Source of the DNA: Bdellovibrionota bacterium FG-2 | GTDB taxonomy: Bacteria; Bdellovibrionota; UBA1018 | Length of the DNA: 19,894 bases | Direction: 5' to 3' | Assembly (NCBI GenBank): GCA_051382305.1 | Contig: JBBCAV010000060.1 | Coordinates: forward strand, 1 to 19,894 | Part shown: positions 1-17,100 of the stretch, piece after piece | Position numbering within the stretch: the stretch's first letter is position 1 | How the letters are laid out: each line of letters opens with the position of its first letter | The notes under the pieces: model-generated | What the model saw: only the letters and a program-made list of their open reading frames with translations | Told to the model about the DNA's origin: nothing | The model's database searches: none | Translations under genes and position numbers: made by a program

Positions 1-97
1 GGTTGCGATTGAACATTTGAAAACAGAAAATTCACACAAAAACATGTCAACACTTTTTTTATTTTTATGAAAATAAATTAGACGGCTGGCCAATTAC
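1..97 (-). mobile_element. Terminus of a probable IS (IS66/ISBst12-like end), left copy, cut by the window edge
   Basis: Exact reverse complement of 19732-19828. It ends inward as ...GGCTGGCCAATTAC, i.e. a GTAA-N5-CAG terminus like IS66-family IRs. It supplies the TAA (96-94) that stops the neighbouring ORF. No transposase is visible in the window. Confidence 0.6.
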
Positions 98-654
98 CTT
101 ATTTCTACCTCAATTTGAGGCGGCTTCCTGCTCAAACTGAGGTGGCTTCCCCCTCGATTTGAGGGAGGTGGTGGACTGGGTGGAGGCGCCTCGTTTCGAG
201 GTGGCTTACCTTGAGGGACCTTACCATCTGGTGGACTCCAGACGGCCTGCGCCGTAATCCGCCAAAGATTGCCCCGCTTGAAATCCGTCTGGACGAGCTG
301 GATCAGCTTCGTCTCTCGAAGAATCTTCAGGGCACGCGAAACGGTGGCATGTGGCATTCCAAGCGCCTCGGTGATGAAGCCGATCGAGGCGCGAACCGTT
401 CCATCGGAGTCTGGGAATCTCCAGCCCTGACTGCTCAGCCACAGATATAGGCGAAACGAGTCGCCAGAAAGATCGCGTAGCTTTCGGTCACGAAATACGG
501 AATGAGCCAGCTGAAAGTAACCCCCATCTGCAACTCCAACTTTTCCTGATGGCTGGCAACACTGAGCCACCTCAGTGAGAGTTCTCTCTTGATTGGCCAC
601 TGTCATGGGGGATTGGACTTCACTTGGATTTGAGGTTCGTCCATTCCCTCTCAT
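94..654 (-). pseudogene. Winged-helix/HTH replication-initiator-like protein, C-terminally truncated by the terminal repeat
   Basis: N-terminal GYFQLAHSVF..LSGDSFRLYLWL..ASIGFITEALGMPHATVSRALKILRETKLI is typical of phage/plasmid initiator HTH domains. A Pro-rich linker encoded by iteron-like repeats follows. GAGGT RBS precedes the ATG. The stop codon lies inside the 1-97 repeat. Confidence 0.65.
108..210. repeat. Iteron-like array (putative oriV) inside the initiator gene
   Basis: CCTCAATTTGAGG (108-120), GCTCAAACTGAGG (130-142), CCTCGATTTGAGG (152-164), CCTCGTTTCGAGG (189-201). The first three are at an exact 22-bp period, and three of four are followed by YGGCTT. Confidence 0.7.
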
Positions 655-746
655 AGGACACCTCTGCTGTAGGCTGATTGAGTTGAAATTGGCCGGTTAA
701 GATTATGATTCGCAATGGCAATGATGGGGCAAAGTGATTGGTTCAT
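651..746 (-). CDS. 31-aa leader peptide (MNQSLCPIIAIANHNLNRPISTQSAYSRGVL) translationally coupled to the initiator gene
   Basis: Own GGAGAG RBS (755-750). Its TGA overlaps the initiator ATG (ATGA, 654-651). It is below the ORF-track size cutoff. Confidence 0.55.
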   Translation of the reverse strand: MNQSLCPIIAIANHNLNRPISTQSAYSRGVL

Positions 747-762
747 ATTCTCTCCATTCGTG

Positions 763-792
763 TTGACAGAGACGGCACCTCTCATTAAGAAT
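763..792 (+). promoter_or_regulatory. sigma70-type promoter firing antisense to the rep leader
   Basis: Perfect TTGACA at 763-768, 17-18 bp spacer, TAAGAAT at 786-792. Confidence 0.6.
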
Positions 793-797
793 AGAGA

Positions 798-943
798 AGT
801 ACCCGCCAGGAGCCGCGTAAAGCAGCTCCGGTTAAGGTTGCAAACATCAGATTCCGGACCTGCGAAGATCGAGATCTGAGCGAGTTAAAGTTTGAAAAGC
901 CTGGAGCCCATTTTAGTAGAATGGCTCTGGGCTTTTTCGTTTT
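798..943 (+). ncRNA. Putative ~140-nt counter-transcribed antisense RNA (ctRNA-like)
   Basis: Lies between the TTGACA promoter and an intrinsic terminator. Internal hairpins GGAGC..GCTCC (809-829) and TCAGAT..ATCTGA (847-879). No ORF-track ORF. Antisense to the presumed rep 5' UTR. Confidence 0.55.
895..943 (+). terminator. Rho-independent terminator
   Basis: AAAAGCCTGGAGCC...GGCTCTGGGCTTTT stem followed by TTTTTCGTTTT. Confidence 0.75.
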
Positions 944-1025
944 ATGTGATTGTGCGCACTAAGATACCTACCTTCTCATTCTTTTTTGCAGGAAGAGGCG
1001 CCTAACCGTGTGAGATGGGGGCGAC

Positions 1026-1305: not shown

Positions 1306-2493
1306 CTATTTGTACTTCTTGTCCCTCCTTGAAATTTTCATCGCATCTTTTTGTTTTGGCAGCGGGGAATCCGTCTTGCCCAACTCTGTTTCCAACTGCT
1401 CCACCGTCGGCAAAGTGCCCTTCAGTTCCTTGGGAAGTGATTTAACGATTCGGGTCTCCCAATGCGCGACGCCGATGGGCTTTTTGAGATCACGCAGGGC
1501 GTACTCTACGATTATTTTATTTTTGGATCGGCAGAGTAGTAGTCCGATTGTGGGTTTATCGCCGGAGTGACGAAGGAGATCATCGGCTGCTGAAAGATAG
1601 AGGTTCATTTTCCCGACGAAGGCAGGATCGAAAGCAACAGCCTTAAGCTCGACGACCACGTAACAACGCAATTCCAGATGATAAAAGAGCAGATCCAGGT
1701 AGTAGTCTTGATCGCCCACCTCAAGGTGTACCTGGCGTCCAACAAAGGCAAAACCTGCGCCCAATTCGAGGAGAAAACGCTGAATATGGTCCACGAGGGC
1801 CTGCTCGATCTCGCGCTCGCGGCGGGGATCGGCAGTGCCGAGAAAGTCAAAAAGGTATGGGTCTTTGAAAACCTGTTTAGCGAGGTCCGACTCGGCTGGC
1901 GGAAGCGCTGCCGCGAAGTTGGAGACAGCCTTTCCCTGGCGCTCATGGGCACGGGATTCGATTTGCAGGGAAAGGATGTTGTGCGACCATCCGTGCTTGG
2001 CGCTTTTGTCAGCGTACCAGAGGCGTTCCGCAGGCGTGCGACACTTCTCAATCAGGGCGATATGGTGGTACCAAGGCAATTGTGCAAGAGGCTCTTGCAC
2101 AATTGACCTTTCCGGCCAGGCGGCAGCGAAAGCTCGCATATATTTTAGATTTCGAGGTGAAAGTCCCTTCATTTCAGGGTATTCCTTGCGTAGATCTTCG
2201 GCGAGCCGATCAATCACTCTGGCTCCCCAGCCAGCCTGTTCTTGGCGATCAAGGATCATCCGGCCAATGTCCCAGTAGAGCGAGACCATCGCCGAATTTG
2301 CGGTTAAAACTATTCGTAAACGCTCATCCCCGATACGTCGCTTAATTTCATGCAGAATATTTGCGTAATCGCGAGGTAGGTCTGTTCGCGACCCGCCAAC
2401 AGGGAAGGACGCCTCTTCGCGTGCTCGACCCCGAATGCTTCGTGTTTCGTTTGGTTTCTGTTTTTTAATTGTTTTACCTTGGTTCTTGCTCAT
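1306..2493 (-). CDS. yhcG: YhcG/DUF1016 family PD-(D/E)XK nuclease domain protein
   Basis: LYWDIGRMI..GWGARVIDRLAEDL..GLSPRNLKYMRAFA, KDPYLFDFL, FLLELGAGFAFVGRQ, YLDLLFYHLELRCYVVVELK, PTIGLLLC. Confidence 0.93.
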   Translation of the reverse strand: MSKNQGKTIKKQKPNETRSIRGRAREEASFPVGGSRTDLPRDYANILHEIKRRIGDERLRIVLTANSAMVSLYWDIGRMILDRQEQAGWGARVIDRLAEDLRKEYPEMKGLSPRNLKYMRAFAAAWPERSIVQEPLAQLPWYHHIALIEKCRTPAERLWYADKSAKHGWSHNILSLQIESRAHERQGKAVSNFAAALPPAESDLAKQVFKDPYLFDFLGTADPRREREIEQALVDHIQRFLLELGAGFAFVGRQVHLEVGDQDYYLDLLFYHLELRCYVVVELKAVAFDPAFVGKMNLYLSAADDLLRHSGDKPTIGLLLCRSKNKIIVEYALRDLKKPIGVAHWETRIVKSLPKELKGTLPTVEQLETELGKTDSPLPKQKDAMKISRRDKKYK

Positions 2494-2504
2494 CGATCAC
2501 CTGC

Positions 2505-3710
2505 CTATTTATTCTTAAAATCAAACAAGCTAACCACCTTCTCCATCACGGCCTCGTCTGTCGGAATGAATTTTAACCTCTCCGTCGCTCCGCCCTCGTC
2601 GATACCGGCAAGACGGATATACCGCTGCATGGTCTTCATATCCTTCCAACCACAAATCTTCATTACGACCGTAGCCGGAATCCCTGAAGCAATCAACTGG
2701 GTTGCGAAGCAGGCGCGTAGCGTATGAAATTTAATGGATGGGATACTGTTTGCCTGGCAAAAACCACGCAGGATCATGGCCTGCATTCCAAGGCGCCAAT
2801 CGGAAAAGGGCGGGAGTAGGGGGTCGTCGGACTTTTTCTCGTCGATTTTCAGCTCCTGCACGAGAAACCAATAAAAATCACTCGATACCGGAACGCTACG
2901 CCAATAGCCTGCTTTGGTTGGCCCCAGTTCTTTGAGGCGGGTATTCCAATTCTTTCGAATTCGGATCAGCCCATAGCGTCGTTGCTCTGGAGGCAGTTTT
3001 TCACACGCGATGGCATCCTCGCGTGAAATAATCTCAACGTCACTTCTTTTTAGCGCCTGAAGCTCGCCGCTGCGGCATCCCGTATAGACAGCAGTTACCC
3101 ACACCGGATACCAGGGATGTTGCTGTTCTTTTGCTTTGCGCAGTAGATCGCGGATTTCAATGATTGTAAGAACTTCTGGAACTTTTTCCTCGCGGTCCTT
3201 TTCGATTTCCATTCCGTGAACCGGTGTTTCGTGAACGCCATTAATGAGCTTTTCTTCGATGCCCCAGGTATAAACTAGGCTAATCGTATTCTTTAGATGT
3301 TTGCAGAATCCTCCATTTTTGCCCTCGGCCTGTGCATGGCGTATGATCTCGCGACCATCCCCTCGATTCAGCTCGGATGCGACACGGGGCAACCATGGCC
3401 CCGTCCAGTTTCGGAGCAGTGAACAGTAGTCCTCAATAGTTGTCCTGGCGTAGCGCTTGGTGGGGTAGATTTCCTGATACCGTCCCCAACGATCGATTAC
3501 ATCACGCCATTTGAGGCCCTGCGCCTCCATGGTGGAGAGCTTTTCAGAAAGCTCTCGAAGGACCTTTTTTTCCTCTGCAAGCGCTTCTTTTTCTGAGGTT
3601 AATCCGTTGATCCGCTTTTGGACGCGGATTCGCCGATCCTTTCGACTGCGAATGTCGACATAGACTTGCCAATAGGTTTTTCCATTTTCTTCGTAACTTG
3701 AAACCGCCAT
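2505..3710 (-). CDS. int: Tyrosine recombinase / site-specific integrase
   Basis: Catalytic set R (TGCRSGEL), K (TKAG), HxxR (FHTLRAC), W (CGWKD), Y (TMQRY). N-terminal arm-binding-like region. AGGGGG RBS. Confidence 0.95.
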   Translation of the reverse strand: MAVSSYEENGKTYWQVYVDIRSRKDRRIRVQKRINGLTSEKEALAEEKKVLRELSEKLSTMEAQGLKWRDVIDRWGRYQEIYPTKRYARTTIEDYCSLLRNWTGPWLPRVASELNRGDGREIIRHAQAEGKNGGFCKHLKNTISLVYTWGIEEKLINGVHETPVHGMEIEKDREEKVPEVLTIIEIRDLLRKAKEQQHPWYPVWVTAVYTGCRSGELQALKRSDVEIISREDAIACEKLPPEQRRYGLIRIRKNWNTRLKELGPTKAGYWRSVPVSSDFYWFLVQELKIDEKKSDDPLLPPFSDWRLGMQAMILRGFCQANSIPSIKFHTLRACFATQLIASGIPATVVMKICGWKDMKTMQRYIRLAGIDEGGATERLKFIPTDEAVMEKVVSLFDFKNK

Positions 3711-3724: not shown

Positions 3725-3946
3725 CTAAAAAGCTGAGGATTCAAGCATTCGGTCGAGTTCGAGCCTACGAAAGTAAAGCCGCCTGTGGAATTTTCTGGGC
3801 CGGATATAACCCCGGTACACCATAATCCGAAGGGCATTGGCCGTTTTTCGGAGGTACTTTGCAGCATCTTTCGAATCTAGCCACGAGAGGTGGTCAAATC
3901 CGACTTCAATCACGTCACGATCAGTCGCAGTTTCGATTGTACTCAT
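3725..3946 (-). CDS. Excisionase/Xis-like HTH protein
   Basis: 73 aa, WLDSKDAAKYLRKTANALRIMVYRGYIRPRKFHRRLYFRRLELDRML matches the HTH_17/Xis pattern. Immediately upstream of int. GGAGG RBS. Confidence 0.8.
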   Translation of the reverse strand: MSTIETATDRDVIEVGFDHLSWLDSKDAAKYLRKTANALRIMVYRGYIRPRKFHRRLYFRRLELDRMLESSAF

Positions 3947-4292: not shown

Positions 4293-6149
4293 TCATGGAA
4301 AATGGATTTCTCGCTCTAGGCCCATATCCCGCGACAGCGAGCGCTCATGTGGCGCGGGCGTGGGTGGTTCCCACGTTAAACTGACTTCAATGTGGAACGG
4401 ATTAAGAGAGTCTCGGAGTGAGTCAAAGAATTGCAAAATGTCAGGGGCATGGGTTTGCGACTGTCCGGCACTGTTGATGACAATCACGCGCTCTAGCTCG
4501 CGGTGACGTGCGATAGCTTGGTGAACGGGCTTAAGTGAGGGTGCGAGCAACACTAGCTGGGCAGCGTTGGTCGCCTCGGGGTCGATGTAAAGGTTAGGCG
4601 AGCCTTTAAGAAATGCCTCGGGCTCAAGATACAAGTGCAGCTCTCGCGCCTTCTTGGGGTGAGAGGCGAAGAAATCTCCCTCAGCCTTTCCCTGGCGGCG
4701 TGTTTTGTATCGGCCGTCGTCCTGGGGGATGAAGTCCAGTGCCCCTTCATTGGTGTCTGCTGAAAATAAGTGGATCACCCCGTCTCGCCCGACGTTTACT
4801 CGTTGGCGTTTCAAAAGTTCACCATGGACCCGGTGACTGGGGGAGTGGCCCAGCCACCGGGAGAGGTGGGCGATAGAATCAGCTCGTGTTGTGGGGTCGC
4901 CCTTGGGAATATAACCTCTGGGAATATAAAATGACTGGTAGCCTCGCTTTTCTTCCCCCATATGTTGTTCGAGAAGCATGAGTTTAGGGTTGTTATTAAG
5001 GATCGAAACGGCATGGAGGAATCCCACTTCGCGGTGAGAGGCCACGAAGTCGATCGCGTTGCCGCGTGTTTTGTTGCGGTGGTTGGTCCAGGTGTACTCT
5101 GAAACTTCAACGTAATCGCGCCCACGAAGAACCGTTCGGCCATCCTCGGTGCGTGATAGGCCGATTTTAGTGCGCTCGCAGTAGCCAAGAATGCTTTGCA
5201 TTTTAGCGCGCTGGATCTCTTCAATAGGAATTACGCTTTTGGCCAGCTCGTCTTCGCGTGGGTGACTCACTCCCTCGGCGCGCGTGGATACCAGGGGTGA
5301 CGCTTGAGGCGTATCCTGCTCAGGACTGGTGAGCGCGTGCGGGGGAGTGCGGTAGTCTGCAATCAAGTCGGAGAGGGTCGCACGCAACTCAGGGGATGCT
5401 GCCACTCGTGCGCGGTTGGATTCAAACTTTCGCTCAAGTGCGGGTTTATCCAGTTGCGGATCGAGGTTGCGACCTCGTTTTCCATGGGTTTTGTCGGGGT
5501 AATAGTAGGTGATGTTCTGGGGCTCGATGCGGACTTGAACATCAAAGGCGTTTAAGATCGCAAGATACTCGTCGTAACCTGTGGCATGGCGACTGGCGAA
5601 GTTCGCTTTGTTCGCCATGTCGACGATGTAAGAGCGCCCGCGCATGCGGTCAATACGCTGGACCTTATCGCTCAATCCTGTTCGGCGGTGTTGTGCCCCT
5701 TTAGGGAGAACACTTAATCCATGGGACAGGCAGATTTCATCGCTTAAGTCTCGCAAGGTTTGCAGGTGGCACTTCTTGTTTTGAATACGCTCTCCGGTTG
5801 CAAGGCTTACTGGATTGAGCGCGATGTGATTATGGAGGTGAGGGGTGTCCGTGTGAGTTTGAACGACGTACTGGTGTTGGGGGGCAAAACGAGAAATCAA
5901 TTCCTCACCCATCCCATGAACCTGCTCCGGCGTCAGTCGCTTGCTCTCCTCGGGTGAAAAACTTTGGATGATGTGAATGATCTCGTTGCCCGCTGATCGC
6001 ATCTTCTCTTGCGTGGCCACATAGTCCTTGCGCATCGACTTCAAATGGACGCCTTGCTCAGTCTGAGGATTGGCTTCGCGCTCATTGGAGCGTAGGTACT
6101 TTTCAACCCGAGTCGCGTCTTGAACGAATAGAATTTTAACGGTGGCCAT
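4293..6149 (-). CDS. MOBP-family (VirD2/MobA-type) relaxase with C-terminal primase-like accessory region
   Basis: Motif I Tyr (VEKYL), motif II HIIQSFSPEE, motif III HQYVVQTHTDTPHLHNHIALNPV. C-terminal GNAIDFVASHREVGFLHAVSIL. Confidence 0.92.
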   Translation of the reverse strand: MATVKILFVQDATRVEKYLRSNEREANPQTEQGVHLKSMRKDYVATQEKMRSAGNEIIHIIQSFSPEESKRLTPEQVHGMGEELISRFAPQHQYVVQTHTDTPHLHNHIALNPVSLATGERIQNKKCHLQTLRDLSDEICLSHGLSVLPKGAQHRRTGLSDKVQRIDRMRGRSYIVDMANKANFASRHATGYDEYLAILNAFDVQVRIEPQNITYYYPDKTHGKRGRNLDPQLDKPALERKFESNRARVAASPELRATLSDLIADYRTPPHALTSPEQDTPQASPLVSTRAEGVSHPREDELAKSVIPIEEIQRAKMQSILGYCERTKIGLSRTEDGRTVLRGRDYVEVSEYTWTNHRNKTRGNAIDFVASHREVGFLHAVSILNNNPKLMLLEQHMGEEKRGYQSFYIPRGYIPKGDPTTRADSIAHLSRWLGHSPSHRVHGELLKRQRVNVGRDGVIHLFSADTNEGALDFIPQDDGRYKTRRQGKAEGDFFASHPKKARELHLYLEPEAFLKGSPNLYIDPEATNAAQLVLLAPSLKPVHQAIARHRELERVIVINSAGQSQTHAPDILQFFDSLRDSLNPFHIEVSLTWEPPTPAPHERSLSRDMGLEREIHFP

Positions 6150-6459
6150 AGTCCCTCATGGCGAGTGCGTGCAGGTCCTCAAGGAGCTTGTGCATTGCTT
6201 TGATGTGATCAGAAACCTCTTTGGCGATGCCGCTGTTGACTCCCTTTGCGATCTGGTTGAGGTTGTTGCCAATGGCAGCGATCTGGCGAATGAGTTCTCG
6301 ACTTGTCTCGTAGTCGAATGCGGGTGGTTGCAGTTCGGCTGAGTTGAAGAAACGCGTTTTAAGGAGCCAGGGTATACTACGTCCAGTGAGGAGTTGCTGG
6401 CGCGTGATTCGGCGATATTCAACGGGCGAAAAGCGCACAGTAGTGCGACAAGAACTCAT
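6136..6459 (-). CDS. mobC: MobC relaxosome accessory protein (RHH)
   Basis: TTVRFSPVEY N-terminus and LIRQIAAIGNNLNQIAKGVN signature. Overlaps the relaxase start. Confidence 0.92.
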   Translation of the reverse strand: MSSCRTTVRFSPVEYRRITRQQLLTGRSIPWLLKTRFFNSAELQPPAFDYETSRELIRQIAAIGNNLNQIAKGVNSGIAKEVSDHIKAMHKLLEDLHALAMRDYGHR

Positions 6460-6586: not shown

Positions 6587-7948
6587 TCATACTAAACCTC
6601 CAACAGCCTTAGCAGCCAAACCAGCGCCGGAGGAAACGCCCTCGGGCAAAGTGTCGGGCGCCGAATCCGAAAGCAACGGTCGCAGCCCCATAATGAGGGA
6701 GCCCGTGAAGAGCGGACCGATCATAAGTTGAAGCCACGAGTAGACGGCAAATGCCTGATAGAGCCGTGATGAAACGAGGGTCGCAGCATAAAGGGACACT
6801 CCGTCAGTGAGGTGCCCGAAGGCTTCGAGTGTTTCCAAGTTGAGCGCAAGGGTTGTGACGACGTGGTAGAGAAGCGCCCAGAGGGGATTCCAAAGGCAGA
6901 TGCTCAGGTAGGTCATCCACCACCAGACAACGGGTTTCCAATGGCCTGCGGCAAGAAAGAATACGAGGATTGGAAAAAATCCAACGAGAAGCATTTTGAG
7001 GAATCCTGAAACGTGCGGCGCGCGAGCGAAATGATCCGACAATTCCTGTGAGCGCTTTGCCGCGACGGCTGCGCCCTTAAGTTCGCGGCGGCCCAACAGA
7101 GAGAGCACACCGTCCATTGAAAATGCGCGGTTGAGATACTGCATGATTCGTCCGCCAGTGCCAGGAAGCTCAGCGCCCTTCTCGACGCCCATCGTGCCCT
7201 CGCGGCCTTCGAGGTAGTGGTTGACGAGGAGGTTCGACGTCACCCAGTTTTCATAGTTCTGGCCGAAGCCTTGCCAAAATCTAGGAATACCGGAGCCTTC
7301 GGTAACGGCTCGGTCGTAAACGGATGAGTGATGGTGAGCGTAGTCGGCGAGGGCTTGGTTCATTCCTTGTTTTAGCTCCAGGCAATTGCCTAAGGGACCG
7401 TTGCCAAGTGGAATCGCAGCGAGCTTGCGATCGGCGCCGCTTTCGCGTGAGAAGTAGCGGTCGAGGAAGTTGCCGTCGGTCGCGGTGTTATATTGCGGCA
7501 GAACTTTGCTCAGGCATTCCTCAGTGTAGAAGTCGATGCTTGATTTAAGCTCGGGGTCGTCGATGGAGTCAGACGCTGCGCCCAGCATCGCTTTGTAAAA
7601 GAAGTTTGCGGACGTGGCCTGCGGATTGGTCCGGCTAAATGTCGCGTCCACAAGCAGCGCCAGGGCGCGGGCGATCTCTTCAGCCGAGGCCGAGAGCAAT
7701 CGAAAGACGAGACTGACCCGGTACTGGTCTTTGGCGGTTGGGAGGTGATTTGTGATGTAAGGGTTCTGGGTCCACGATCCGCCTGTCATGTTTGCGGGGT
7801 TAACGCTTGCGTCGACCTTGAGGAGCGAGATTCCGACGAAGAGGCAAAATACAAGAACGACGACGCTGCCTACAGGTGCGCGTCGTGAGCGCAAGAAAAA
7901 CGGAACGTAGCGGGAGGCGAAGTGAACGAGGAATGTAAAGAAGGCGTA
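6587..7948 (-). pseudogene. traG: TraG-N-like inner-membrane mating-pair protein, 5' end missing
   Basis: Follows traH-like in operon order. Has TM-periplasmic-multi-TM layout with F..Y..EC and Y....LW.PLWALL motifs. The frame stays open upstream of TTG 7894 as hydrophobic YAFFTFLVHFASRYVPFF, with no ATG/RBS before the stop at 7969-7967. Confidence 0.7.
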
Positions 7949-8886: not shown

Positions 8887-9705
8887 ATGAAGTTATCGAT
8901 GAGCGCGCTTAAAAATATCTATGAATATCAGGACTATAAAACCTATTTGCTGAAGTTTGCGCAAAGCCAGCCCAGAGGGTTTCGCAAGGATCTCGCGCAC
9001 GCATTAAACTGTCAAACTGCGTATGTTTCTCACGTTTTCAATGGAGAGGCCCACTTCAGCCTAGAACAGGCAGAAGCCCTGGCCCGATTCATTAACCTCA
9101 CGCCCGAAGAAACAAGCTATCTCATGCGCTTGATCGAGTTCACGCGGGCGGGGACCCCTCAGCTTAAGAAATTCATTTCGCGCGAACTTGCCCAATTGAG
9201 AGAAAAGCATCTCCTCATTAAGGATCGTGTAGCGGTGAAAGATTCACTGAGCCGGGAGGATCAAGCCATCTACTACAGTGCTTGGTACTATGCTGCGATT
9301 CATGTGGCTCTCACCATCCCCGCGCTCACTACGCGAGAGGCTCTTTGCCACTATTTTCGTCTTTCTTCCAAAACTGTAACTGAGGTTTTGGAGTTTCTTG
9401 TTTCGGTGGGCCTTGCGACTCAATCGGGAGTTCGCTATCAAATTGGAACCAAACAGATACACCTCGAAAAAGATTCGCCACTTATTTCAAAGCACCATAC
9501 GAATTGGAGAATGCAAGCCGTTAGAGCTTTGGAGCAAATGAAATTCGATGAACTTCATTTCTCATCTGTGTTCACTCTGACCGACCAAGATGCGCAAAAC
9601 ATCCGAGAAATTCTCGTTAAGGCGATTGAATCCGCAGTCGGGATCGTCAAAGTAGCAAAAGAAGAAAAGCTTTTCGCAATGGCCTTGGATCTATTTGAAG
9701 TCTGA
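8887..9705 (+). CDS. TIGR02147 / DUF4423 family HTH protein
   Basis: IYEYQDYKTYL..RKDLAHALNCQTAYVSHVFNGEAHFSLEQA, YYSAWYYAAIHV, SKHHTNWRMQA, FSSVFTL, LDLFEV. 272 aa. The family is expanded in Bdellovibrio and Fibrobacter. Confidence 0.85.
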   Translation: MKLSMSALKNIYEYQDYKTYLLKFAQSQPRGFRKDLAHALNCQTAYVSHVFNGEAHFSLEQAEALARFINLTPEETSYLMRLIEFTRAGTPQLKKFISRELAQLREKHLLIKDRVAVKDSLSREDQAIYYSAWYYAAIHVALTIPALTTREALCHYFRLSSKTVTEVLEFLVSVGLATQSGVRYQIGTKQIHLEKDSPLISKHHTNWRMQAVRALEQMKFDELHFSSVFTLTDQDAQNIREILVKAIESAVGIVKVAKEEKLFAMALDLFEV

Positions 9706-9719
9706 CCTTGCTTGTAAAA

Positions 9720-11060
9720 TTACTTTCCGCAAAACACCCCATCCCCACAATCATTCATCCTCACCGCATGTGACGCCTTGCTCTCAGTCCCGCTTTGCAC
9801 CGATAGATTCGAGCGTGTCGCTTCATCCTGAGCATTGAGACCCTCGGCGGTGATGTATTGCATGATTTCGCCCACAGGTTTGGCCTGTTCTTGGCGCAGG
9901 CGGAGAGTGAGGTCGACTTGATCTTTGAGGCCCTGGCGTTTCTGGTCGATCTCCAATTTTCGATTGGGTGGCAGATTTGGATTTTGGGAGGCCACCGTGA
10001 GCACGTCGATGGAGCGGTTCATATCACGTGTGAAGGCCTGCATCGCCATTGCTTGCGAAAGCTTCAGGCAAATTCGGTCGCGTCTCATCTTGGGGAGGTA
10101 CACAAGGTTTCTGACCACATCGGGAGTGAGCATGGGCGTTTCGTCTTCGCCGGGGGCCGACGGTAGCGCCTTCATTCGGCGCACGATCTCAGCGTCAGTG
10201 ATATATTGCGGGTTGGTCGCGAACTCGGGCAACAATTTTCCACAAAACGCTTGAGCAATTTGTTGCTCCATCGAAATCAAATACGACCTCGGCGAATAGG
10301 CGTGTGATCGCGGGCCGTAATCAACTCGGATATTTCCGTTAGAGAGCACGGTATCGCCCACGATTGATTGGAGAAGTCCTGTGATCCGATTCCCCTCATT
10401 GCCCGAAAAGCCTGCCCAACGGGTCGAGTCGGCGAGGAGATTATTGGGGCGATTAGGATCATCAGACGGGCCGCTCCACGCGCCGGCCTTTTTTTCGAAG
10501 ACGCCATTTTGGCAGGAACCCATGGCGGATTCCATATCACCGCCATTGGCCTCAATCGAGCGATGCACGCAGGGCTGGCGCTCACGGTAGTAGTCTTCCA
10601 CGCGCGAATCGACGTACTTATCCACGATCTGGCATTGATTCAGGCGAAGGCCCGCGAGAAAATTTGCGGAGACCTGCGTGTGTTTGAGGATCGCGCACCA
10701 GGTGGGCGACATATAGCAAGCCGCGAGCATCGGTGCGCTTCCTAGAATGTCCTGCGCCATTCCCTTGAAGTAATCTCCGTTTAGAACCTTGCCAAACGCG
10801 GCCCGCAGAGTTCCGTCGATGTTGATCTTGCCGCAATCGGAGCCTATGGCGAGATTCACTCCGAGATCGACGGGCTTGAGCGTCTCGAAGAGGTCGTTTC
10901 GCCGCTCGGGATTGGGTGCATAAAGGTAGTCCTGGGGTTTGAGTCGGCCCTGCATTCTCATGTCGTGGTTGCCCGAGAATCCAAAGCTATCGGCAGCGCT
11001 GGCTGATGCGCTCGCCATAACCGCTGTCACGATCCACGCAAAGCCTATGGCTTGAATCAT
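9720..11060 (-). CDS. traH: TraH-like periplasmic pilus assembly protein
   Basis: Signal peptide, GSDCGKINIDG (cf. TraH GCGGID), several Cys, C-terminal coiled coil, position before traG-like. ATGA overlap with traC. Confidence 0.65.
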   Translation of the reverse strand: MIQAIGFAWIVTAVMASASASAADSFGFSGNHDMRMQGRLKPQDYLYAPNPERRNDLFETLKPVDLGVNLAIGSDCGKINIDGTLRAAFGKVLNGDYFKGMAQDILGSAPMLAACYMSPTWCAILKHTQVSANFLAGLRLNQCQIVDKYVDSRVEDYYRERQPCVHRSIEANGGDMESAMGSCQNGVFEKKAGAWSGPSDDPNRPNNLLADSTRWAGFSGNEGNRITGLLQSIVGDTVLSNGNIRVDYGPRSHAYSPRSYLISMEQQIAQAFCGKLLPEFATNPQYITDAEIVRRMKALPSAPGEDETPMLTPDVVRNLVYLPKMRRDRICLKLSQAMAMQAFTRDMNRSIDVLTVASQNPNLPPNRKLEIDQKRQGLKDQVDLTLRLRQEQAKPVGEIMQYITAEGLNAQDEATRSNLSVQSGTESKASHAVRMNDCGDGVFCGK

Positions 11061-13684
11061 GAGGAATCCCCTGTTTCCGTCGTGCCTTCTGGAAATCGTG
11101 TAACCAAGTCTTCGAGTGCGCGCAGTGGTTCCGTAGGAAACAGAGCCAGTGTTCGCTCGGCCTCAAGTGCATCGGGTCGGTGGGTAGGCATGAGCCAAAG
11201 CTCATGAGCTGAAGGAACGCTGCGGAACGCGCCAGCAAGGGTCTGCGTCTTGTGAACATAAAAAGCGTCTGCGTAAAGCCCCCGTTCGGTGCGCAGGCTC
11301 TTGACGATTTGAGAGGCGGCTTCATTGAGCAGATCGGAGTTCTTGGCGATGAAATTCACGTTGTCGTCTTTCATCGAAAGGAAAATAAAGTGATCCGCGA
11401 CCGCCCACATCGCTTGACCCGCCGAGGTGTCGAAGTAGTTGCGCGGGTTCGGCGTAAGACCAATCAAAAAGAAGCCAAGCTTGCGGAATGTCTCTGCCGC
11501 ATCGATGACAAAGTCTTTGGCGACAGGATTGTTTCGCCCGAGCATTCCGAGTTCTTCAATAACGATAAACCCGCCACGGCTTCGAGCGTCGGTGTCCTTC
11601 ACTTTGCGACGGATGTCATCCACCACACTCATGGTCATGAGCGTCTGAAGTACAGGCTCGCCCGCGAGGGCATCCAGATCATAAACGTAGAGATCGGCCA
11701 GGGGAGTGGCTCCATGAGCACTCTGAGAACCTCTGAAAAACGGACCATAAACCCCATCTGAGTAAAAGGGGCGGAGCTTTTTGGCGAGATCATCAACCGC
11801 CTGCCCATACTTTTCAAAATCAGTTTGCCCAGTTAAGGTGCCAAGCTGCGAGATCACGTCGTCAATTGAAACATCGGCCGCCTCAAGCGCGTTCGCATCT
11901 GCGCCGAGAAGCTCTCCCTGGACATAACGGACCCCAGCAGTTCTGGTTCGCACGTCGTAGGCCTGTCGGATCGCTTGAGTGATACACGACGTGTGCTCAG
12001 AATCGAAAGCAAAGGTCGGCGAGGTCAGTTGAATCGCAGCGGTCAGGAGCTTGATGAGAAAACCAAGCTTCTCTTCATCTAACGGCCCCCTAAATGGTGA
12101 AAACGGCATGGGCTTACCGTGTTCAAAAACCGTAAGCTCAGATGGGAGGAACTTTGAGAGCATCCCGTAGCTTGTTTTGTGGTCGATTACGAAGATCAGC
12201 GGTTTGGGATCACGTCGCAATTCGCCTAACAGCATTCGGATGACCTGCCCACTCTTGCCTGATCCCGTGTCACCCAAGACCGCAGTCATGTGGGAGTTGC
12301 CGTGGGTTCGTAAAGAAAATGGCACAATTCCGTTTTCACGCGACATAAAAATGGACCCCCCTCCGGCGACCATTGGGCAGCCGCGAAACGTGTCCAGCAC
12401 TGGGCAAAAGTGGACGATATCTGAGGCAAGAATTTTCACGGCACGTTGCGCGGTGTAATCCGCAATCGGGTGATATTGGAGGGGGAGGGCATTGAGCCAG
12501 AGCCCAAAGCCGATTTCTTTTTCGACAAGGGCTTCGCATTCCAAGCGTTGTTGAAAACGGGCCAGACACTCTTGCGTGCGTTGTTCAAGCTCGTCTTGTG
12601 TGTTCCCCTCGATCATTAGCGTAAACGTCATGTTAAGTACGCGGTCGTCTCGCAGGAGTTGGTCTTGGATGTCGTCGATTTCCTTTTTTTGTCTGCGCGC
12701 ACGAGCTGTGGGGGTGTTTTGGAGGAAAAATTCTTTCAACGCAAACTGGCGTTTGACCGCACCCGATTTGGGAAACGATATATTGAGGCAAAGCCGAAAC
12801 GGAAAATCCAGGCCCAGGAAATATGCCATTGCGCCCGGATAGGCGAATGAGGGCGCGTTTTTGAGTGAAATCGTGCGCGTGGTGACGCCTTCGCGCGTGA
12901 TTCCTGGATAATCGATCCGGCTTGGGCAAAAGATGACTTGCTCCGAAAGCGAAAGCCCAGGGTTCACAGGTGCAAACGGGCGCTGATAATACGTGACCGG
13001 GTTGAAGGTCCGCCTCAAATAGTCCGTGAGCTCCGTGGCGTTGATTCGTCGAAGCGCGAGCGGAGAAGTTAACTCAAACTGCGACAGCGAATGATTGAAG
13101 GCCCTTGCGCGTTTCAGAAACGCTTGAAGCTCATGTGAGAGAGTCGCATGAGGATTGCCCAGCTCTGCGGCGGCACGCCCGATTCGCGCCTTTGCCGATG
13201 GCGTTTGTTCAAACTGCCTTACGCTAATATAGAGGGTGCGTCGCATCGGTACACCACTCCCGCGCAGGCGCTCCACTTGAGCCAGATGCAGACTCGCCGG
13301 AATGTCGCCCCGGCTTCGGTCAGTGGGGGTTACAAGCATGTCCCACTCCCGATCAAACTTTGACACGATCGATTGCTCGAAGAGCAACGAGAGCGTGACT
13401 TCTTCGGGAAGCCGAAACCATGAGCGAAGGCCCTCAAGGAGGGTGATGATTTCTTGTGACGTTTTGGTTTCGTGCTCGCAAAGCGCTACTTCATAGACGA
13501 CGCCAAGCGAGCCGTCTTTTTGGCGAAAAAGGCCAAGATCGGTCACGTATTCGTCATAGGAGAGGAAGTTGGCCAGGCTTTCGGGCCGTTCCATGAATGC
13601 GCGCGCGAAGGTTTCGTGATTAGCGAGAGCGGCTTCTATGCTTTTTGGTAGGGGCGTTGCCAAAGAGATTGAAAGATTCTTCAC
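11057..13684 (-). CDS. traC: TraC/VirB4 T4SS ATPase
   Basis: Walker A GDTGSGKS, FVIDHKTSY, Walker B-like FIVIEELG, FRKLG. N-terminal SLANFLSYDEY matches TraC starts. Probable GTG start at 13684. Confidence 0.9.
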   Translation of the reverse strand: MKNLSISLATPLPKSIEAALANHETFARAFMERPESLANFLSYDEYVTDLGLFRQKDGSLGVVYEVALCEHETKTSQEIITLLEGLRSWFRLPEEVTLSLLFEQSIVSKFDREWDMLVTPTDRSRGDIPASLHLAQVERLRGSGVPMRRTLYISVRQFEQTPSAKARIGRAAAELGNPHATLSHELQAFLKRARAFNHSLSQFELTSPLALRRINATELTDYLRRTFNPVTYYQRPFAPVNPGLSLSEQVIFCPSRIDYPGITREGVTTRTISLKNAPSFAYPGAMAYFLGLDFPFRLCLNISFPKSGAVKRQFALKEFFLQNTPTARARRQKKEIDDIQDQLLRDDRVLNMTFTLMIEGNTQDELEQRTQECLARFQQRLECEALVEKEIGFGLWLNALPLQYHPIADYTAQRAVKILASDIVHFCPVLDTFRGCPMVAGGGSIFMSRENGIVPFSLRTHGNSHMTAVLGDTGSGKSGQVIRMLLGELRRDPKPLIFVIDHKTSYGMLSKFLPSELTVFEHGKPMPFSPFRGPLDEEKLGFLIKLLTAAIQLTSPTFAFDSEHTSCITQAIRQAYDVRTRTAGVRYVQGELLGADANALEAADVSIDDVISQLGTLTGQTDFEKYGQAVDDLAKKLRPFYSDGVYGPFFRGSQSAHGATPLADLYVYDLDALAGEPVLQTLMTMSVVDDIRRKVKDTDARSRGGFIVIEELGMLGRNNPVAKDFVIDAAETFRKLGFFLIGLTPNPRNYFDTSAGQAMWAVADHFIFLSMKDDNVNFIAKNSDLLNEAASQIVKSLRTERGLYADAFYVHKTQTLAGAFRSVPSAHELWLMPTHRPDALEAERTLALFPTEPLRALEDLVTRFPEGTTETGDSS

Positions 13685-14131
13685 GGAGTGGTCTCGCTCG
13701 GGGGCGTGCGTGACGGGCGCAGCTTTCTTATATTTATGAGGGCGTTTTGACTTTGTTTCTCGAATCCCCGCGACCGGAGGCGCGTCTTCGTCTGACGCCT
13801 CAAACACCCACTGGTCTTGCGCGATCAAAAGCGAAACGTAGCCGCCCCAGAAATAATCTCGCGTGGGAAGCTCATGAGGGAATACGTAGACTTTGGCAAC
13901 CCGAGGGGAGGCCCGCTTCAAAACGCTGTCCTGCGCACGTTTCCCACGCTGGTAGAGCGCGACTTCGTCGTCATCGGGGGCATCTCCGTAACCCGCCCGA
14001 GAGTCGAGCATTCGAATCGATGGCGCGCGGTTCACGCAGCCGTTACCTGCCGCAAGCAACAGACACGCCCCACAGATGAGGGCGATTGTGCTATTCCATA
14101 AGTCTTGTGAAATGCGAATAAATTGATGCAT
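13681..14131 (-). CDS. traV: TraV-like lipoprotein, lacking its own in-frame stop (reads into traC)
   Basis: GGAG RBS + ATG 14131, lipobox-like LAAGNGC, PRVAKVYVFPHE..DYFWGGYVSLLIAQDQW (TraV-type motif). The TGA at 13683-13681 is one base out of frame. Confidence 0.75.
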
Positions 14132-15431
14132 TTTCCACTCCTTCCTCGCCTTGGGCGAAATAGTCTTTTGGGAGATCCACTGAATCTTGCATGATGATCC
14201 ACACGTCTTGGCCGGACCCGACGTTGATAGTGGGAAGCAAGTTTTGAGCTTGTTTGAGATACCACTGCGTGACTTGGCTTGCTGCCTCAGAAGCGCCACC
14301 TGCGCCAATGTACTTGGCTTGATCGCCGGTGACGATTGATTGCCCGCCGCCAAGGGGTGTTGACTGTTGTGTCGTTTGGGATTGTTGAACGGCCTTGCCG
14401 ATTCCGCTTACGACACTCGATAAAAATGCCATCGCGGCAACGCGGTCTTGCTTGGTGTTGACCGTTCCCATGACGGCGAATGAATTGTCCGCGTCGTCGG
14501 CCACGAAGCCATTGACCTCTCGCTCAAAGAATCCGCCCTTTTTCGAGACGCATGAGAGTTTCACGGCCTGCATCTGCACGCGCTCTGTTGAAAGGTCTCC
14601 TTGGGCTTTGGCAATGGCAAAGCACCCGGTGAGATCCAAGCGTTTGTGGTTGGGGATCACATAAGCGAAATCAAGTTGAAGGAGTGCAGGATAGCTCTTG
14701 CCCTCCGGGGCTTCAACGCCAGTGAGGAGCTTGGCTTTGACGTAGCTTCCGCTTGGGAGCACCACACTTGGGCGTTTGAGATACACGGCGCCTGATGTTT
14801 TCACGGGGAAAGATACGACGTTTACGCCGGCTTTTCCCCCTCTGCGGGGCTTATCGATACCTGAAAGGCCAAAACCACCGGTTGATCGCATGGGAGAGGC
14901 GCGTGAAGTGTGAACCGTGTCGCGTATGGGTGATGGGGCGGGGCTAGGGACTGGGGAAGGCTCGTAGGCCGCAGCACCGTACTGAACTTGGCCAGTCTGC
15001 GGGGATTCTGATGGTGTTGGTACAGGTGCCATTGCCAGCGCGGGTTGCGACGGGCTCCCAGATGGCACAATTGATGGCACGCTAGCGGCCCCAGGCACGG
15101 GCGAGGCTGCGCCGGTTTGAATCTGACTAAGTTGTCCCCGAAGTTTGGTAACTTCTTCTTGAAGGACCTTTTGCGTTTCGAGGATTTCTTTTTGCTGACG
15201 ACTAAATAGAGTCTGCTCACCTTGCAGTACTTTTTCGCCGGGGTTGCCGAGGATGCTGGAATGCTTGAAGTCAGGAATTCCATCGGTGCGAACGAGTATT
15301 CGGGTTTGTTCAGTTCCCGTGGCATACGATAGAACGACTGCGAGAGACGCGAGGCCACCGCATACCGCAAGGAGTTTGCGATGCTTCTGAATTACAGCCT
15401 TAAAACGGGTGAAATCGCGATCAAACCTCAC
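14091..15431 (-). CDS. traB: TraB/VirB10 family core-complex protein
   Basis: N-terminal TM, coiled coil, Pro-rich linker, LPSGSYVKAKLLTGVEAP, GCFAIAKAQGDLSTERVQMQAVKLSCV. Confidence 0.92.
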   Translation of the reverse strand: MRFDRDFTRFKAVIQKHRKLLAVCGGLASLAVVLSYATGTEQTRILVRTDGIPDFKHSSILGNPGEKVLQGEQTLFSRQQKEILETQKVLQEEVTKLRGQLSQIQTGAASPVPGAASVPSIVPSGSPSQPALAMAPVPTPSESPQTGQVQYGAAAYEPSPVPSPAPSPIRDTVHTSRASPMRSTGGFGLSGIDKPRRGGKAGVNVVSFPVKTSGAVYLKRPSVVLPSGSYVKAKLLTGVEAPEGKSYPALLQLDFAYVIPNHKRLDLTGCFAIAKAQGDLSTERVQMQAVKLSCVSKKGGFFEREVNGFVADDADNSFAVMGTVNTKQDRVAAMAFLSSVVSGIGKAVQQSQTTQQSTPLGGGQSIVTGDQAKYIGAGGASEAASQVTQWYLKQAQNLLPTINVGSGQDVWIIMQDSVDLPKDYFAQGEEGVENASIYSHFTRLME

Positions 15432-16255
15432 TTTTTGTCCCTCTCACTCTTCAGCGCCACGGGTAGGATGATTCGTTGAGAGGACGCGCCTGGACGAGCC
15501 ACCACACGGAGATAGGCTTCGCGCTCCTCGGGAGTTTTGCCGCCGATGAACGCGCGGTCCACTTGGGCTAAGATGGCGAGGTTGGGTTGACCTATGGCTA
15601 AGGCGTCGAGGGAGATTTCAAAGCTGCTTTCTTTGAGGCCGGTTTTAAGGATGTAGACGTAACCGTTCATGTCGTGGCCTCGGTACACTCGTTTCAACTC
15701 AGCGGTGAGGTTGGGCGATCCCAGCGAGATGGGTTGCGAGTAATTTGTGGAATTAAACCCTGCCACCTGATCGCCACGAATCATCGCGCGCATGAGATCC
15801 AATTCTGAGATCACGATCGGGTCTGCGTGGTCTTTGAGGTTTGGGTTTGTGTCGCCCAGTTCTAACTTAGCTTTGAAATCATAAATCGAGTCGCGTTTGA
15901 GGTTCGAGCGAGTTGCCACTACGAGCTGGGTTCGAATCGGCGTGCCGTCGGAGAGCAAAAATGTCACGTCAGCGGAGCCCTCGGCGAATCTCGGTTTTAC
16001 CGTTAAAACGCTGTAATCCGGCTCATCTGCGTTTGCCGGGCGGATGTCGAACTTGCTCGCTTCAGTGATTGTTTTTACTTCCATGGGAAACCGAAAGATT
16101 GTTTCAGTCCCAAATGCGACGGGAATGGTCTCTCGCGCTTTTCCAAACACAATGTCGCGTGCGAGAGCAGAATGGGTCGCAAAAATTATAGTGAACAGTA
16201 GCGGCGGAACCAATTGAACAACCCGAGTAATATGAAATACAGCGTTATTTCCCAT
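15428..16255 (-). CDS. traK: TraK/VirB9-like outer-membrane core protein
   Basis: Signal peptide, TIFRFP..LTVKP..ELDLMRAM pattern, position between traE and traB, GGAGG RBS. Confidence 0.75.
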   Translation of the reverse strand: MGNNAVFHITRVVQLVPPLLFTIIFATHSALARDIVFGKARETIPVAFGTETIFRFPMEVKTITEASKFDIRPANADEPDYSVLTVKPRFAEGSADVTFLLSDGTPIRTQLVVATRSNLKRDSIYDFKAKLELGDTNPNLKDHADPIVISELDLMRAMIRGDQVAGFNSTNYSQPISLGSPNLTAELKRVYRGHDMNGYVYILKTGLKESSFEISLDALAIGQPNLAILAQVDRAFIGGKTPEEREAYLRVVARPGASSQRIILPVALKSERDKK

Positions 16256-17087
16256 TGATTCCTCCTTGAGTGAGTCCTGACTTCACGCGGAATGCGTTAG
16301 CGTCTTGGCTCGTGAGCTTGATGATTTCGAGATACCAGCGTTTGCCGGCCTTGGGCGGAACGAGGCGCATGACCATTTCGATCACGATGTCCGTAGAGCC
16401 CAAGTGTTCATTGTTGGCGAAGGTGTCCTTGCGACCCACCGCCGTGACTTGGTAGTAGCCGTCTTGGTTCGTGCGGATTTCTTTTTGGGTAACGCTCAAG
16501 ATCTGCGCGATGGCTTCATTCTTTACGCGCGCGACCCAGCTTGAGGATTCCATCTCGAATTGGACCCGTAGTTCAGGGCTCATGCTGTCAGTGAGGCGTG
16601 CGTATTGCTCAGTGATGTTGACGGAGTTGAAGGTGCCAAAAGTCTGAAGAAATTCCATTGCGGCGTTTTGAATGTGAGACTCTGGAACGCTTTGGGGTGC
16701 AACGGGGGTGAAGTCCAGGACGCCTGGGGCGAGAATGAATTCTTTTTCGCGGAGCTTGACGTTTAAGTGCGAGACCTCAATGCGGGAGGTAAGAAAAAGT
16801 GCGGCAAAGGCGACAGACACAAGTGCGAGCGCGTATTGGAGTGACAGCTTTTCTCTAACGAGCGCAGCTCGGTAGCAAATATATTTTGGAAGTATTCGCA
16901 GATCGACGCCGCCGACAACATGGGCGGGGGGAGTTTGAAGGCGTGCGGCTTCGAACCCTTTTTCCATAGGGCCGACGACGTTCGCGTGAAAGGCGAAGGC
17001 GGCTCTTTGGCTTGCGCGTGAGACCGTTGCTTTGGCTTCTGCGCCGAATTGACCTGATTTGGCTTTGATCTTAGTAATCCATTCCAT
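16245..17087 (-). CDS. traE: TraE/VirB8-like protein
   Basis: Single TM followed by ILAPG and a VirB8-like alpha/beta periplasmic domain. Lies between traL and traK. GGGAG RBS before ATG 17087. Confidence 0.75.
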   Translation of the reverse strand: MEWITKIKAKSGQFGAEAKATVSRASQRAAFAFHANVVGPMEKGFEAARLQTPPAHVVGGVDLRILPKYICYRAALVREKLSLQYALALVSVAFAALFLTSRIEVSHLNVKLREKEFILAPGVLDFTPVAPQSVPESHIQNAAMEFLQTFGTFNSVNITEQYARLTDSMSPELRVQFEMESSSWVARVKNEAIAQILSVTQKEIRTNQDGYYQVTAVGRKDTFANNEHLGSTDIVIEMVMRLVPPKAGKRWYLEIIKLTSQDANAFRVKSGLTQGGINGK

Positions 17088-17100
17088 TGATAAGCTCCCG

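Follow-up and report, generated by a model that had tools for sequence, protein, structure and literature searches.

The locus and the truncated gene

The stretch analysed here, referred to as the window, is the complete 19,894-bp contig C60 (JBBCAV010000060.1) of Bdellovibrionota bacterium FG-2, which belongs to an assembly of 433 contigs that is 85% complete. At its left end, the open reading frame (ORF) at 94-654 on the minus strand encodes P0001, a protein of 186 residues in which a short N-terminal tail is followed by a winged-helix domain and a Pro-rich tail (PPDGKVPQGKPPRNEAPPPSPPPPSNRGGSHLSLSRKPPQIEVEIR). The protein is cut after ...PPQIEVEIR, whereas its intact relatives comprise 270-530 residues. 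The DNA encoding the Pro-rich tail contains four palindromic units of the form CCTC-N5-GAGG, and the ORF is probably the N-terminal half of a lambda-O-type replication initiator whose gene contains a lambda-like origin, here inactivated by an insertion sequence (IS). The features of this region, with the matching IS end on the opposite side of the contig, are as follows.

94-654, minus strand: truncated gene for the putative lambda-O-type initiator P0001
235-516, minus strand: winged-helix DNA-binding domain, approximately residues 47-140 of P0001
203-215: fifth unit, degenerate (mismatches at 2 of its 8 arm bases), located 15 bp before iteron 1
189-201: iteron 1 in gene order, coding strand CCTCGAAACGAGG, frame 0, encoding PRNE
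152-164: iteron 2, coding strand CCTCAAATCGAGG, frame 1, encoding PSNRG
130-142: iteron 3 with one mismatch, coding strand CCTCAGTTTGAGC, frame 2, encoding HLSLS
108-120: iteron 4, coding strand CCTCAAATTGAGG, frame 0, encoding PQIE
98-107: first 10 bp of an AT-rich stretch, coding strand TAGAAATAAG, placed by alignment with 17 relatives, the rest being displaced by the IS
1-97: terminal 97 bp of the IS, the interior of which lies to the left, beyond the contig; multi-copy, with identical copies elsewhere in the assembly
708-746, minus strand: parA stump of 13 codons, MNQSLCPIIAIAN, from tblastn (E 0.001) and translations
19732-19894: the same IS end, inverted, at the opposite contig end, with the repeat copy at 19732-19828

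Read on the forward strand, the units within the ORF are CCTCAATTTGAGG (108-120), GCTCAAACTGAGG (130-142, with one arm mismatch), CCTCGATTTGAGG (152-164), and CCTCGTTTCGAGG (189-201). The units at 108, 130, and 152 begin at intervals of exactly 22 bp, and the one at 189 begins a further 37 bp on; Tandem Repeats Finder reports a period of 22 with 2.6 copies. Together, the units encode the Pro-rich tail PPRNEAPPPSPPPPSNRGGSHLSLSRKPPQIEVEIR behind the winged-helix domain. Exact CCTC-N5-GAGG occurs three times in the window, always within 108-201, compared with an expectation of 0.33, and this number was reached in 1 of 200 shuffles. With one mismatch allowed, 14 matches occur against 8.3 expected, which alone is not significant. 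The raw count is not decisive, and chance is excluded because the units cluster and are conserved in relatives.

Conservation of the units and constraint on the DNA

An exhaustive HMMER search returned 128 cluster representatives at E<=1e-3 (101 at E<=1e-10), typically of 350-500 residues and described, where an annotation exists, as "helix-turn-helix domain-containing protein". A scan of one genome per species yielded 19 loci, and those with taxonomic information all belong to Bdellovibrionota; several are chromosomal, since they lie on contigs of 0.3-0.9 Mb. Among 401 sampled Bdellovibrionota genomes, 59 contain a match at E<=1e-10 (40 of 336 in the high-quality subset and 27 of 57 in the window's own family), and genomes holding the initiator family often carry two to four copies.

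The units were compared in an alignment anchored at the last unit, with 19 rows formed by the window and 18 loci (L030 is cut short, and L020 and L021 are duplicates). Units with at most 2 of 8 arm mismatches are present at offsets -81, -44, -22, and 0 in 16, 19, 16, and 19 of the 19 rows, respectively. The spacing of 37-22-22 bp is common to the window and the related Bdellovibrionota loci having this part, and the positions are conserved despite a protein identity of only 41-58%. The pooled consensus is CCTCAAA(A/T)(T/C)GAGG, and unit density is 2.6-15.7 per kb inside the genes, compared with 0-0.93 per kb in flanks of up to 20 kb. A unit at the offset of the degenerate fifth unit is also found in L018, L019, L020, L022, L023, and L025. 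Since the three reading frames and the spacing are kept in relatives, the constraint acts on the DNA.

Many relatives contain extra units in the 5′ part of the gene, which follow a 15-bp period and number up to 21 (L018). These units are all in frame 0 and encode xPQNE-like pentapeptides. Across the 5′ arrays of 17 loci, Pro is encoded by CCT in 91 of 112 cases (65 of 226 elsewhere) and Glu by GAG in 99 of 112 (171 of 355 elsewhere), while in 99 of 112 residue 2 is one of the amino acids with CNN codons (Q, R, P, H, or L). Codon choice thus indicates that the 5′ arrays, too, are constrained at the DNA level.

Paralogues with diverged winged helices are encoded at L041 (contig C27, 1288-2577, minus strand), at L042 (contig C71, 6438-7727, plus strand), and by the gene X1 of L012 (9109-10014, plus strand). 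Their own genes carry other palindromes at the same two positions, before and after the part encoding the winged helix, namely GTGTCCAnnnTGGACAC at 16 bp and an AACCnnGGTT type at 18 bp. As the palindromes differ where the winged helices have diverged, protein and sites change together, which suggests that the paralogues represent a family of site specificities, and perhaps incompatibility groups.

The consensus extends to phage lambda. The annotated ori iterons inside lambda gene O (J02459) are ATCCCTCAAAACGAGGGA, ATCCCCTAAAACGAGGGA, ATCCCTCAAATTGGGGGA, and ATCCCTCAAAACAGGGGA, with the stretch ACACAAAAGACACTATTACAAAAGAAAAAAGAAAAGATTATT next, and their 13-bp core, CCTCAAAACGAGG, agrees fully with the family consensus. 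Translation of the lambda iterons likewise involves all three frames, giving IPQNEG, SPKTRD, SLKLGD, and PSKQGD. In an hhalign comparison, the lambda iterons fall on PQIE...SKRGGSHLKL...PQIEVEIR of the family, the lambda peptide IPQNEGKSPKTRDKTSLKLGD being aligned with PQIE..SKRGGSHLKL, with a score that is not significant (E 0.18).

The AT-rich stretch and the truncation

In 17 of 17 intact relatives, an AT-rich stretch of 35-40 bp lies right after the last unit. Mean AT content, taken over 20-bp windows, is 0.78-0.83 at +15 to +55 after the last unit, compared with 0.43-0.53 upstream and 0.49-0.59 for the loci overall. The bias is also visible in synonymous choice: AT at third codon positions is 0.83 in the stretch (238 codons) and 0.51 elsewhere (6,514 codons), Arg is encoded by AGA in 16 of 16 cases within the stretch vs. 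54 of 472 elsewhere, and the Lys ratio AAA:AAG is 46:23 within it vs. 223:213 elsewhere. The most AT-rich 40 bp of each gene falls at this spot, as it does in lambda O (0.80 at nt 436).

In the window, TAGAAATAAG matches the start of the stretch in L012 (CAGAAATAAG-AAATACAATCAC...), and the IS then begins, 10 bp past the last unit (108-120). The last native bases are the AG of the final Arg codon. The IS repeat provides the G that completes this codon (base 97) as well as the TAA stop at 96-94. The closest full-length relative, P0008 (367 residues, 72% identity to P0001), reads ...KKVPQIEVEIR and continues with NTIPFKKLENSLSE... (EVEIR-NTIPFKK) for approximately 180 residues beyond the P0001 cut. 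The insertion has thus removed the AT-rich stretch and approximately 180 C-terminal residues, about half of the protein, from the window copy, which is most likely dead. With both the AT-rich stretch and the C-terminal domain missing from this copy, the element is probably without a working replicon.

Searches of the 85% complete assembly with P0003 and P0008 did not find the missing C-terminal half of the P0001 gene and returned paralogues only (C27 and C71). A fragment on C353 was considered as the missing half and rejected, as it is frameshifted and has its own linker. This fragment (L034, 1201-1856, minus strand) derives from a paralogue, retains a linker with one unit-like site and a C-terminal domain, and adjoins a PIN-like gene.

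Relationship of the protein to replication initiators

P0001 matches the PHROG families phrog_270 (2.9e-7) and phrog_678, "replication initiation O-like" (2.1e-6). When 64 family members were scanned at a threshold of E<=1e-3, phrog_678 was matched by 56 (best 4.3e-15), phrog_270 by 43, and phrog_186, "DnaD-like helicase loader", by 34. Among the 14 PHROG families listed, 11 are replication-initiation families, two are without function, and one, matched by a single member, is "HTH DNA binding protein", HTH denoting helix-turn-helix. Residues 1-172 of lambda O match phrog_678 at 1.7e-35, over the same profile positions as the family. In Pfam scans at E<=0.01, 27 of 64 members hit HTH_36, and the paralogue X1 of L012 (9109-10014) scores above the Phage_rep_O cut-off, with 31.9 bits vs. 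28.7. The scans of P0001 and the family gave no match to Pfam RepA_N (PF06970) and none to ParBc, and RP-C was matched weakly by 1 of 64 members.

The AlphaFold model of P0008, built from a 64-row alignment, has a predicted local distance difference test (pLDDT) score of 82 overall. It contains a winged helix at residues 50-140 (pLDDT >90, in the order H-H-E-H-H-E-E), a linker at 141-200 that is predicted to be disordered and whose coding DNA comprises the units and the AT-rich stretch, and a helical C-terminal domain at 205-365 that is modelled with confidence; the C-terminal domain model has a pLDDT of 89.2. The best seven chains in Foldseek are N-terminal domains of staphylococcal RepA_N initiators (4pql, 4pt7, 5kbj, and 4pta), with E-values of 8e-4 to 1.3e-2 and template modeling (TM, target) scores of 0.44-0.50, and MarR-type regulators rank next. 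In the ESM Atlas, the C-terminal domain resembles unnamed clusters at 0.92, and the named ones are at chance level (at or below 0.85).

The initial annotation, made from the letters of the window, had described four CCTC-N5-GAGG units, three of them with a 22-bp period, as encoding a Pro-rich linker behind an HTH domain. It had likened the gene to lambdoid O-type initiators with iterons in the interdomain linker and had placed the IS end 10 bp past the last iteron, where AT-rich DNA would be expected. Those of its points that computation could address came out as proposed. The units were recovered at 108, 130, 152, and 189, one with a mismatch, in the linker position described. The kinship with O-type initiators is borne out by phrog_678, and the homologues carry the iterons at fixed spacing, in three frames, and with the lambda core, together with the AT-rich stretch at the expected place; they are unlikely to be ordinary transcription factors. 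For the N-terminal domain, for which a comparison with phage O, RepA_N, and HTH_36 had been suggested, RepA_N initiators head the Foldseek matches, HTH_36 is found in 27 of 64 members, Pfam RepA_N is not matched, and VIA gives a generic winged helix. The 15-bp arrays in the 5′ part of the relatives' genes and the link to ParA described below were not in that annotation.

Linkage to ParA and the window subtype

In all 13 foreign loci whose upstream gene was examined (L012, L013, L015-L018, L020, L022-L025, L028, and L029 were counted; L014, L019, L021, L026, L027, and L030 were left out), the gene directly upstream of the initiator gene encodes a ParA-type ATPase, and the two mostly overlap by 4 bp. 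The two full-length paralogues of the window's genome are likewise preceded by such a gene. The upstream ParA matches AAA_31 with E-values of 1e-45 to 1e-53 where complete, and parA and the initiator gene are co-transcribed in relatives. The peptide MNQSLCPIIAIAN of the window stump matches the first residues of the ParA proteins of L012 and L013 and ends just before the Walker A motif; judging from this, the body of parA has been deleted in the window. No ParB (ParBc) gene was found among the scanned neighbours of the relatives, and the two true ParB genes of the window's genome are located elsewhere.

A basic peptide, MSKKPxxLRxALxxMRVNEPxRL, is conserved at the N-terminus of most relatives; the chromosomal ParB of the window's genome begins with ...VLGKGLASLF. 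The window subtype, which comprises P0001, P0008, and the X2 proteins of L012 and L013, has neither the N-terminal peptide nor the 5′ array. In L012, the window-type X2 lies behind the ParA-adjacent paralogue X1, which has the peptide and its own repeats and is without the C-terminal domain. X1 has no comparable AT-rich stretch past its second repeat block, and its AT peak of 0.70 lies before the block. In L013, a frame of approximately 120 codons (9638-10003) between parA and the window-type gene keeps the peptide and a TQV-type array but lacks the winged helix, and represents a degraded X1 or else a free-standing tether peptide.

Proposed function and alternative explanations

The ORF at 94-654 is thus likely to be what remains of an initiator that acted on sites inside its own gene. 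By analogy with lambda, a dimer of the winged-helix domain (approximately residues 47-140) would bind the four 13-bp palindromes (CCTCAAAWYGAGG), which encode the linker, predicted to be disordered, that follows this domain. Once bound, the initiators would wrap the DNA around themselves and melt the AT-rich stretch of 35-40 bp past the last palindrome, and the C-terminal helical domain would then recruit the host helicase or primase. Present in integrated, partly conjugative islands of Bdellovibrionota, such a module would let the excised circle replicate.

Several results weigh against this assignment. Alignment of the family with the single lambda O sequence by hhalign is not significant (E 0.18, probability 0.3%), P0001 has no match to Pfam Phage_rep_O (PF04492) at E<=0.01 and reaches only E 0.12 and 12.9 bits against TIGR01610 phage_O_Nterm (cut-off 45.5), and just 5 of 64 members match Phage_rep_O at E<=0.01. 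What the Pfam scan of P0001 does return is MarR_2 (3.4e-4, weak, residues 89-121) and HTH_Crp_2, both below the curated cut-offs. In VIA, 4pta gives a Z score of 8.8 (root-mean-square deviation 3.9, 92 aligned residues), tied with CodY and other winged helices, so that the match is to a generic winged helix. The C-terminal domain of the relatives matches no Pfam or PDB family by sequence and has no likeness to the C-terminal part of lambda O. No lambda-P-like, helicase, or helicase-loader gene was found among the scanned neighbours, and the downstream genes are not conserved. Peptides rich in Lys, Asn, and Ile could account in part for the AT-richness of the stretch. The place directly behind parA is the usual one for a centromere-binding protein. 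Finally, tblastn searches of 72,556 plasmid and 50,697 phage records returned no homologue of the initiator family, so that no module of this kind has ever been observed to replicate on its own.

An unlikely alternative is that the protein serves partition only, as the ParB analogue of the upstream ParA, with the internal palindromes forming the centromere of the excised island. The position of ParA in all 13 examined loci and both full-length paralogues, with no ParBc gene among the scanned neighbours, is what would be expected of such a system, as are the 15-bp-period arrays of up to 21 further units of the protein's own sites in the 5′ part of the relatives' genes and the 13-codon parA stump kept in the window. 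ParB proteins generally carry an N-terminal motif that activates ParA, and the N-terminal peptide of most relatives resembles it. Weakly consistent with this, the predicted complex of ParA with residues 1-45 scored 0.51 (best control 0.00), with at least 66% agreement of contacts between runs and a partner pLDDT of at least 50. Of 157 solved complexes, 116 attained that mark, as did 2 of 215 mismatched pairs, but a score at or below 0.60 was obtained by only 18 of the 157 and by both passing mismatches. However, the window subtype has neither the peptide nor the 5′ array, so that a role in partition fits the ParA-linked relatives better, and in L012 the window-type gene sits behind a second, ParA-adjacent paralogue that does have the peptide. 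A centromere would need neither an AT-rich stretch nor identity with the lambda iteron core, and the profile matches point to replication initiators.

The two remaining alternatives are far less probable. An ordinary MarR/ArsR-like winged-helix repressor, regulating itself through operators inside its own gene, would agree with the best Pfam and PDB sequence matches, which are to MarR_2, ArsR, and ZitR-type regulators, and autoregulation is also known of lambda O and many plasmid initiators. This is very improbable, as the regulator matches are all below curated cut-offs and cover the recognition helix region alone, whereas initiator profiles of PHROG are matched by 56 of 64 members, and sites at 37-22-22 bp, the AT-rich stretch, and a conserved C-terminal domain of 170 residues are foreign to MarR-type repressors. 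Least credible of all is that the repeats have no role as DNA and are due to chance or a by-product of a repetitive PxxE peptide. The 5′-array units of the relatives, all in frame 0 and encoding xPQNE-like pentapeptides, could be so explained, but the linker units lie in three frames and encode unrelated peptides (PRNE, SNRG, and HLSL), the 5′ arrays are biased in their Pro CCT, Glu GAG, and residue-2 CNN codons, and three exact matches occur in the window where 0.33 are expected.

The assignment as a lambda-O-type initiator with an internal origin is therefore preferred, and it leaves room for a tentative extension to the ParA-linked relatives, in which one protein may be both the replication initiator and the centromere-binding partition adaptor, with both cis sites in one gene; this is possible, though rather doubtful. 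Under such a dual role, the in-frame 5′ array, with up to approximately 21 lambda-type O sites at a 15-bp period, would be the centromere, and its translation would at the same time yield a disordered tether that joins a ParB-like, ParA-activating peptide to the winged helix. The four sites of the linker and the AT-rich stretch would be the origin. The window subtype would have arisen by duplication and division of labour, as in repABC. If this were true, a single gene would serve excised islands as a cassette for both replication and segregation, sharing its ancestry with the O/ori module of lambda.

Island context and neighbouring features

The other features of the window, from Pfam scans except where stated, are listed below.

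764-945, plus strand: conserved promoter-like site (TTGACA at 764-769, N17, TAAGAAT) and candidate small RNA of approximately 150 nt, divergent from parA and the initiator gene
1306-2493, minus strand: YhcG nuclease
2505-3710, minus strand: tyrosine integrase (Phage_integrase, 1.7e-12)
3725-3946, minus strand: HTH_17, Xis-like
4293-6149, minus strand: relaxase (5.9e-28)
6136-6459, minus strand: MobC/NikA
6587-7894, minus strand: TraG_N, below the cut-off
8887-9705, plus strand: DUF4423 regulator
11057-14353, minus strand: TraC/VirB4-like (TraC_F_IV, 4.6e-15)
14091-15431, minus strand: TrbI (4.8e-22)
15428-17412, minus strand: TraK, TraE, and TraL (TraK_C, TraE, and TraL, below the cut-offs)

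Phage_integrase, Relaxase, MobC, TraC_F_IV, and TrbI all score above the Pfam cut-offs. The initial annotation had assigned the gene to a conjugative integrative element, and the gene content of the contig agrees, indicating a conjugative, integrase-bearing element with an F-type type IV secretion system (T4SS) that is bounded in the assembly by two IS copies. The initiator gene probably lies on the element that carries the T4SS, although the contig ends in IS copies on both sides. Scans of the window for tRNA and tmRNA genes and for Rfam families gave no match, and no integration site was found.

Bases 1-97 recur identically at 17 further places in the assembly, mainly at contig ends. Copies of the IS end lie on contigs C9, C21, C37, C38, C54, C108, C206, C209, C277, C278, C287, C324, C325, C386, C390, and C397. 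The assembly is broken by this IS, both ends of C60 bearing its end in inverted orientation. An ORF pointing inward begins approximately 230 bp from the IS end; just the terminal ~421 bp of the IS are assembled anywhere.

When the other 19 window proteins were compared by tblastn (E<=1e-5) with the 10 kb around the homologue in each of the 19 loci, none gave a match. With no shared backbone proteins near the homologues, the module is shared among islands with different backbones, and conserved synteny with the T4SS of the window cannot be used as evidence. The neighbours in relatives include restriction systems, AbiE, mercury, copper, and beta-lactam sensing genes, efflux pumps, integrases (L012, L024, and C27), and other T4SS genes (L023 and L024). 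L024 has genes for an integrase, an FtsK-like ATPase, TrbI, and a VirB4-like protein at no more than 14.6 kb from its parA-initiator pair. In the unrelated loci L012 (13356-15936) and L041 (4858-7675), the module is followed downstream by a tandem of two overlapping tyrosine-integrase genes. In L018 (523-4262) and L020 (4715-8455), the same chromosomal genes, for a sigma-54 activator, a 202-residue ORF, a ThiF-rhodanese protein, and a glyoxalase lie upstream of parA, and ORFs of the same lengths, alike by length alone, are found in L024 (455-2216). This suggests a common insertion site, with the parA-initiator pair at the extreme end of the island.

Two other roles for the repeats were considered and rejected. 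A function as oriT was discarded, the relaxase and MobC genes lying 4-6 kb away and the sites being of the lambda O type. A function as integrase arm sites was discarded as well, since islands whose integrases differ all keep the repeats within the reading frame for a DNA-binding protein.

The candidate RNA has three hairpins, ends in a terminator, and has a consensus fold with three compensated pairs. Copies with 76-79% identity are found near paralogous modules in L041 (C27, 7788-8003), L042 (C71, 5434-5612, minus strand), and L043 (C168, 8175-8391, minus strand). The candidate at 764-945 matches no Rfam family, and it could be a control RNA of the module.

Comparison with known systems

Origins inside the initiator gene are textbook knowledge for lambdoid phages and are known for RepA_N plasmids. 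New here is the lambda-type origin-in-gene architecture on Bdellovibrionota islands, coupled to ParA; full-text searches of open-access papers and preprints found no report of gene-internal origins for conjugative or integrated islands or for Bdellovibrionota. ICEBs1 replicates by a relaxase-driven rolling-circle mechanism, and the module, if it functions as proposed, would add a theta-type replicon to the rolling-circle replication known for islands. The significance of the window itself is more modest, as it holds a decayed copy. The coupling to ParA raises the question of whether one protein both initiates the replication of excised islands and segregates them.

Iteron replicons on integrated islands have a precedent. 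SGI1 is an integrated mobile island with its own iteron replicon, which works after excision, and its oriV consists of four 17-bp GC-rich direct iterons, AT-rich regions, and a DnaA box downstream of rep (PMC7433901). The likeness lies in an integrated island with four iterons and AT-rich DNA; SGI1 differs in that its oriV is outside rep, its Rep belongs to the RepA_C family, and it is mobilizable and not conjugative.

The RepA_N initiators of Firmicutes have a similar layout. In pSK41 Rep, four Rep boxes lie centrally in the rep gene and are bound by the N-terminal winged helix, the encoded linker is dispensable, the C-terminal domain binds DnaG, and both domains resemble DnaD (PMC5703833). 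The architecture is that of the family described here, with the binding sites inside the rep gene. In addition, HTH_36, reported for the N-terminal domain of the pPR9 initiator, is matched by 27 of 64 family members. In contrast, Rep boxes are direct repeats whereas the units here are palindromic, the host phylum is another, and the present module is integrated, with no match among 72,556 plasmid records and none to Pfam RepA_N.

In the repABC operons of alphaproteobacterial plasmids, a ParA-type ATPase, a partition adaptor, and an initiator are encoded in that order, and the origin lies inside the initiator gene. The order parA, X1, X2 in L012 is similar. Here, however, the candidate adaptor and the initiator are paralogues of one winged-helix family, represented by one protein in most loci, and there is no sequence relation to RepB or RepC beyond the weak RP-C match in 1 of 64 members.

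The lambda system differs from the present one in several respects. The spacing is 20-24-23 bp in lambda and 37-22-22 bp here, the iterons of lambda measure 18 bp and the units 13 bp, and the C-terminal domains show no likeness. Unlike the lambda genes, the module resides in chromosomal islands of Bdellovibrionota, with no match among 50,697 phage records, and is coupled to ParA, with extra 15-bp arrays in the 5′ part of the gene in many members. On the other hand, the N-terminal winged-helix domains of both proteins match phrog_678. Both genes hold four palindromic iterons with the core CCTCAAAACGAGG, read in three frames, in the linker-coding DNA just behind the N-terminal domain, and both have approximately 40 bp of AT-rich, purine-rich DNA directly past the last iteron. 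The lambda iteron core surviving in a distant phylum offers a testable pair of protein and site, and the palindromes of the paralogues offer a natural series of specificity switches.

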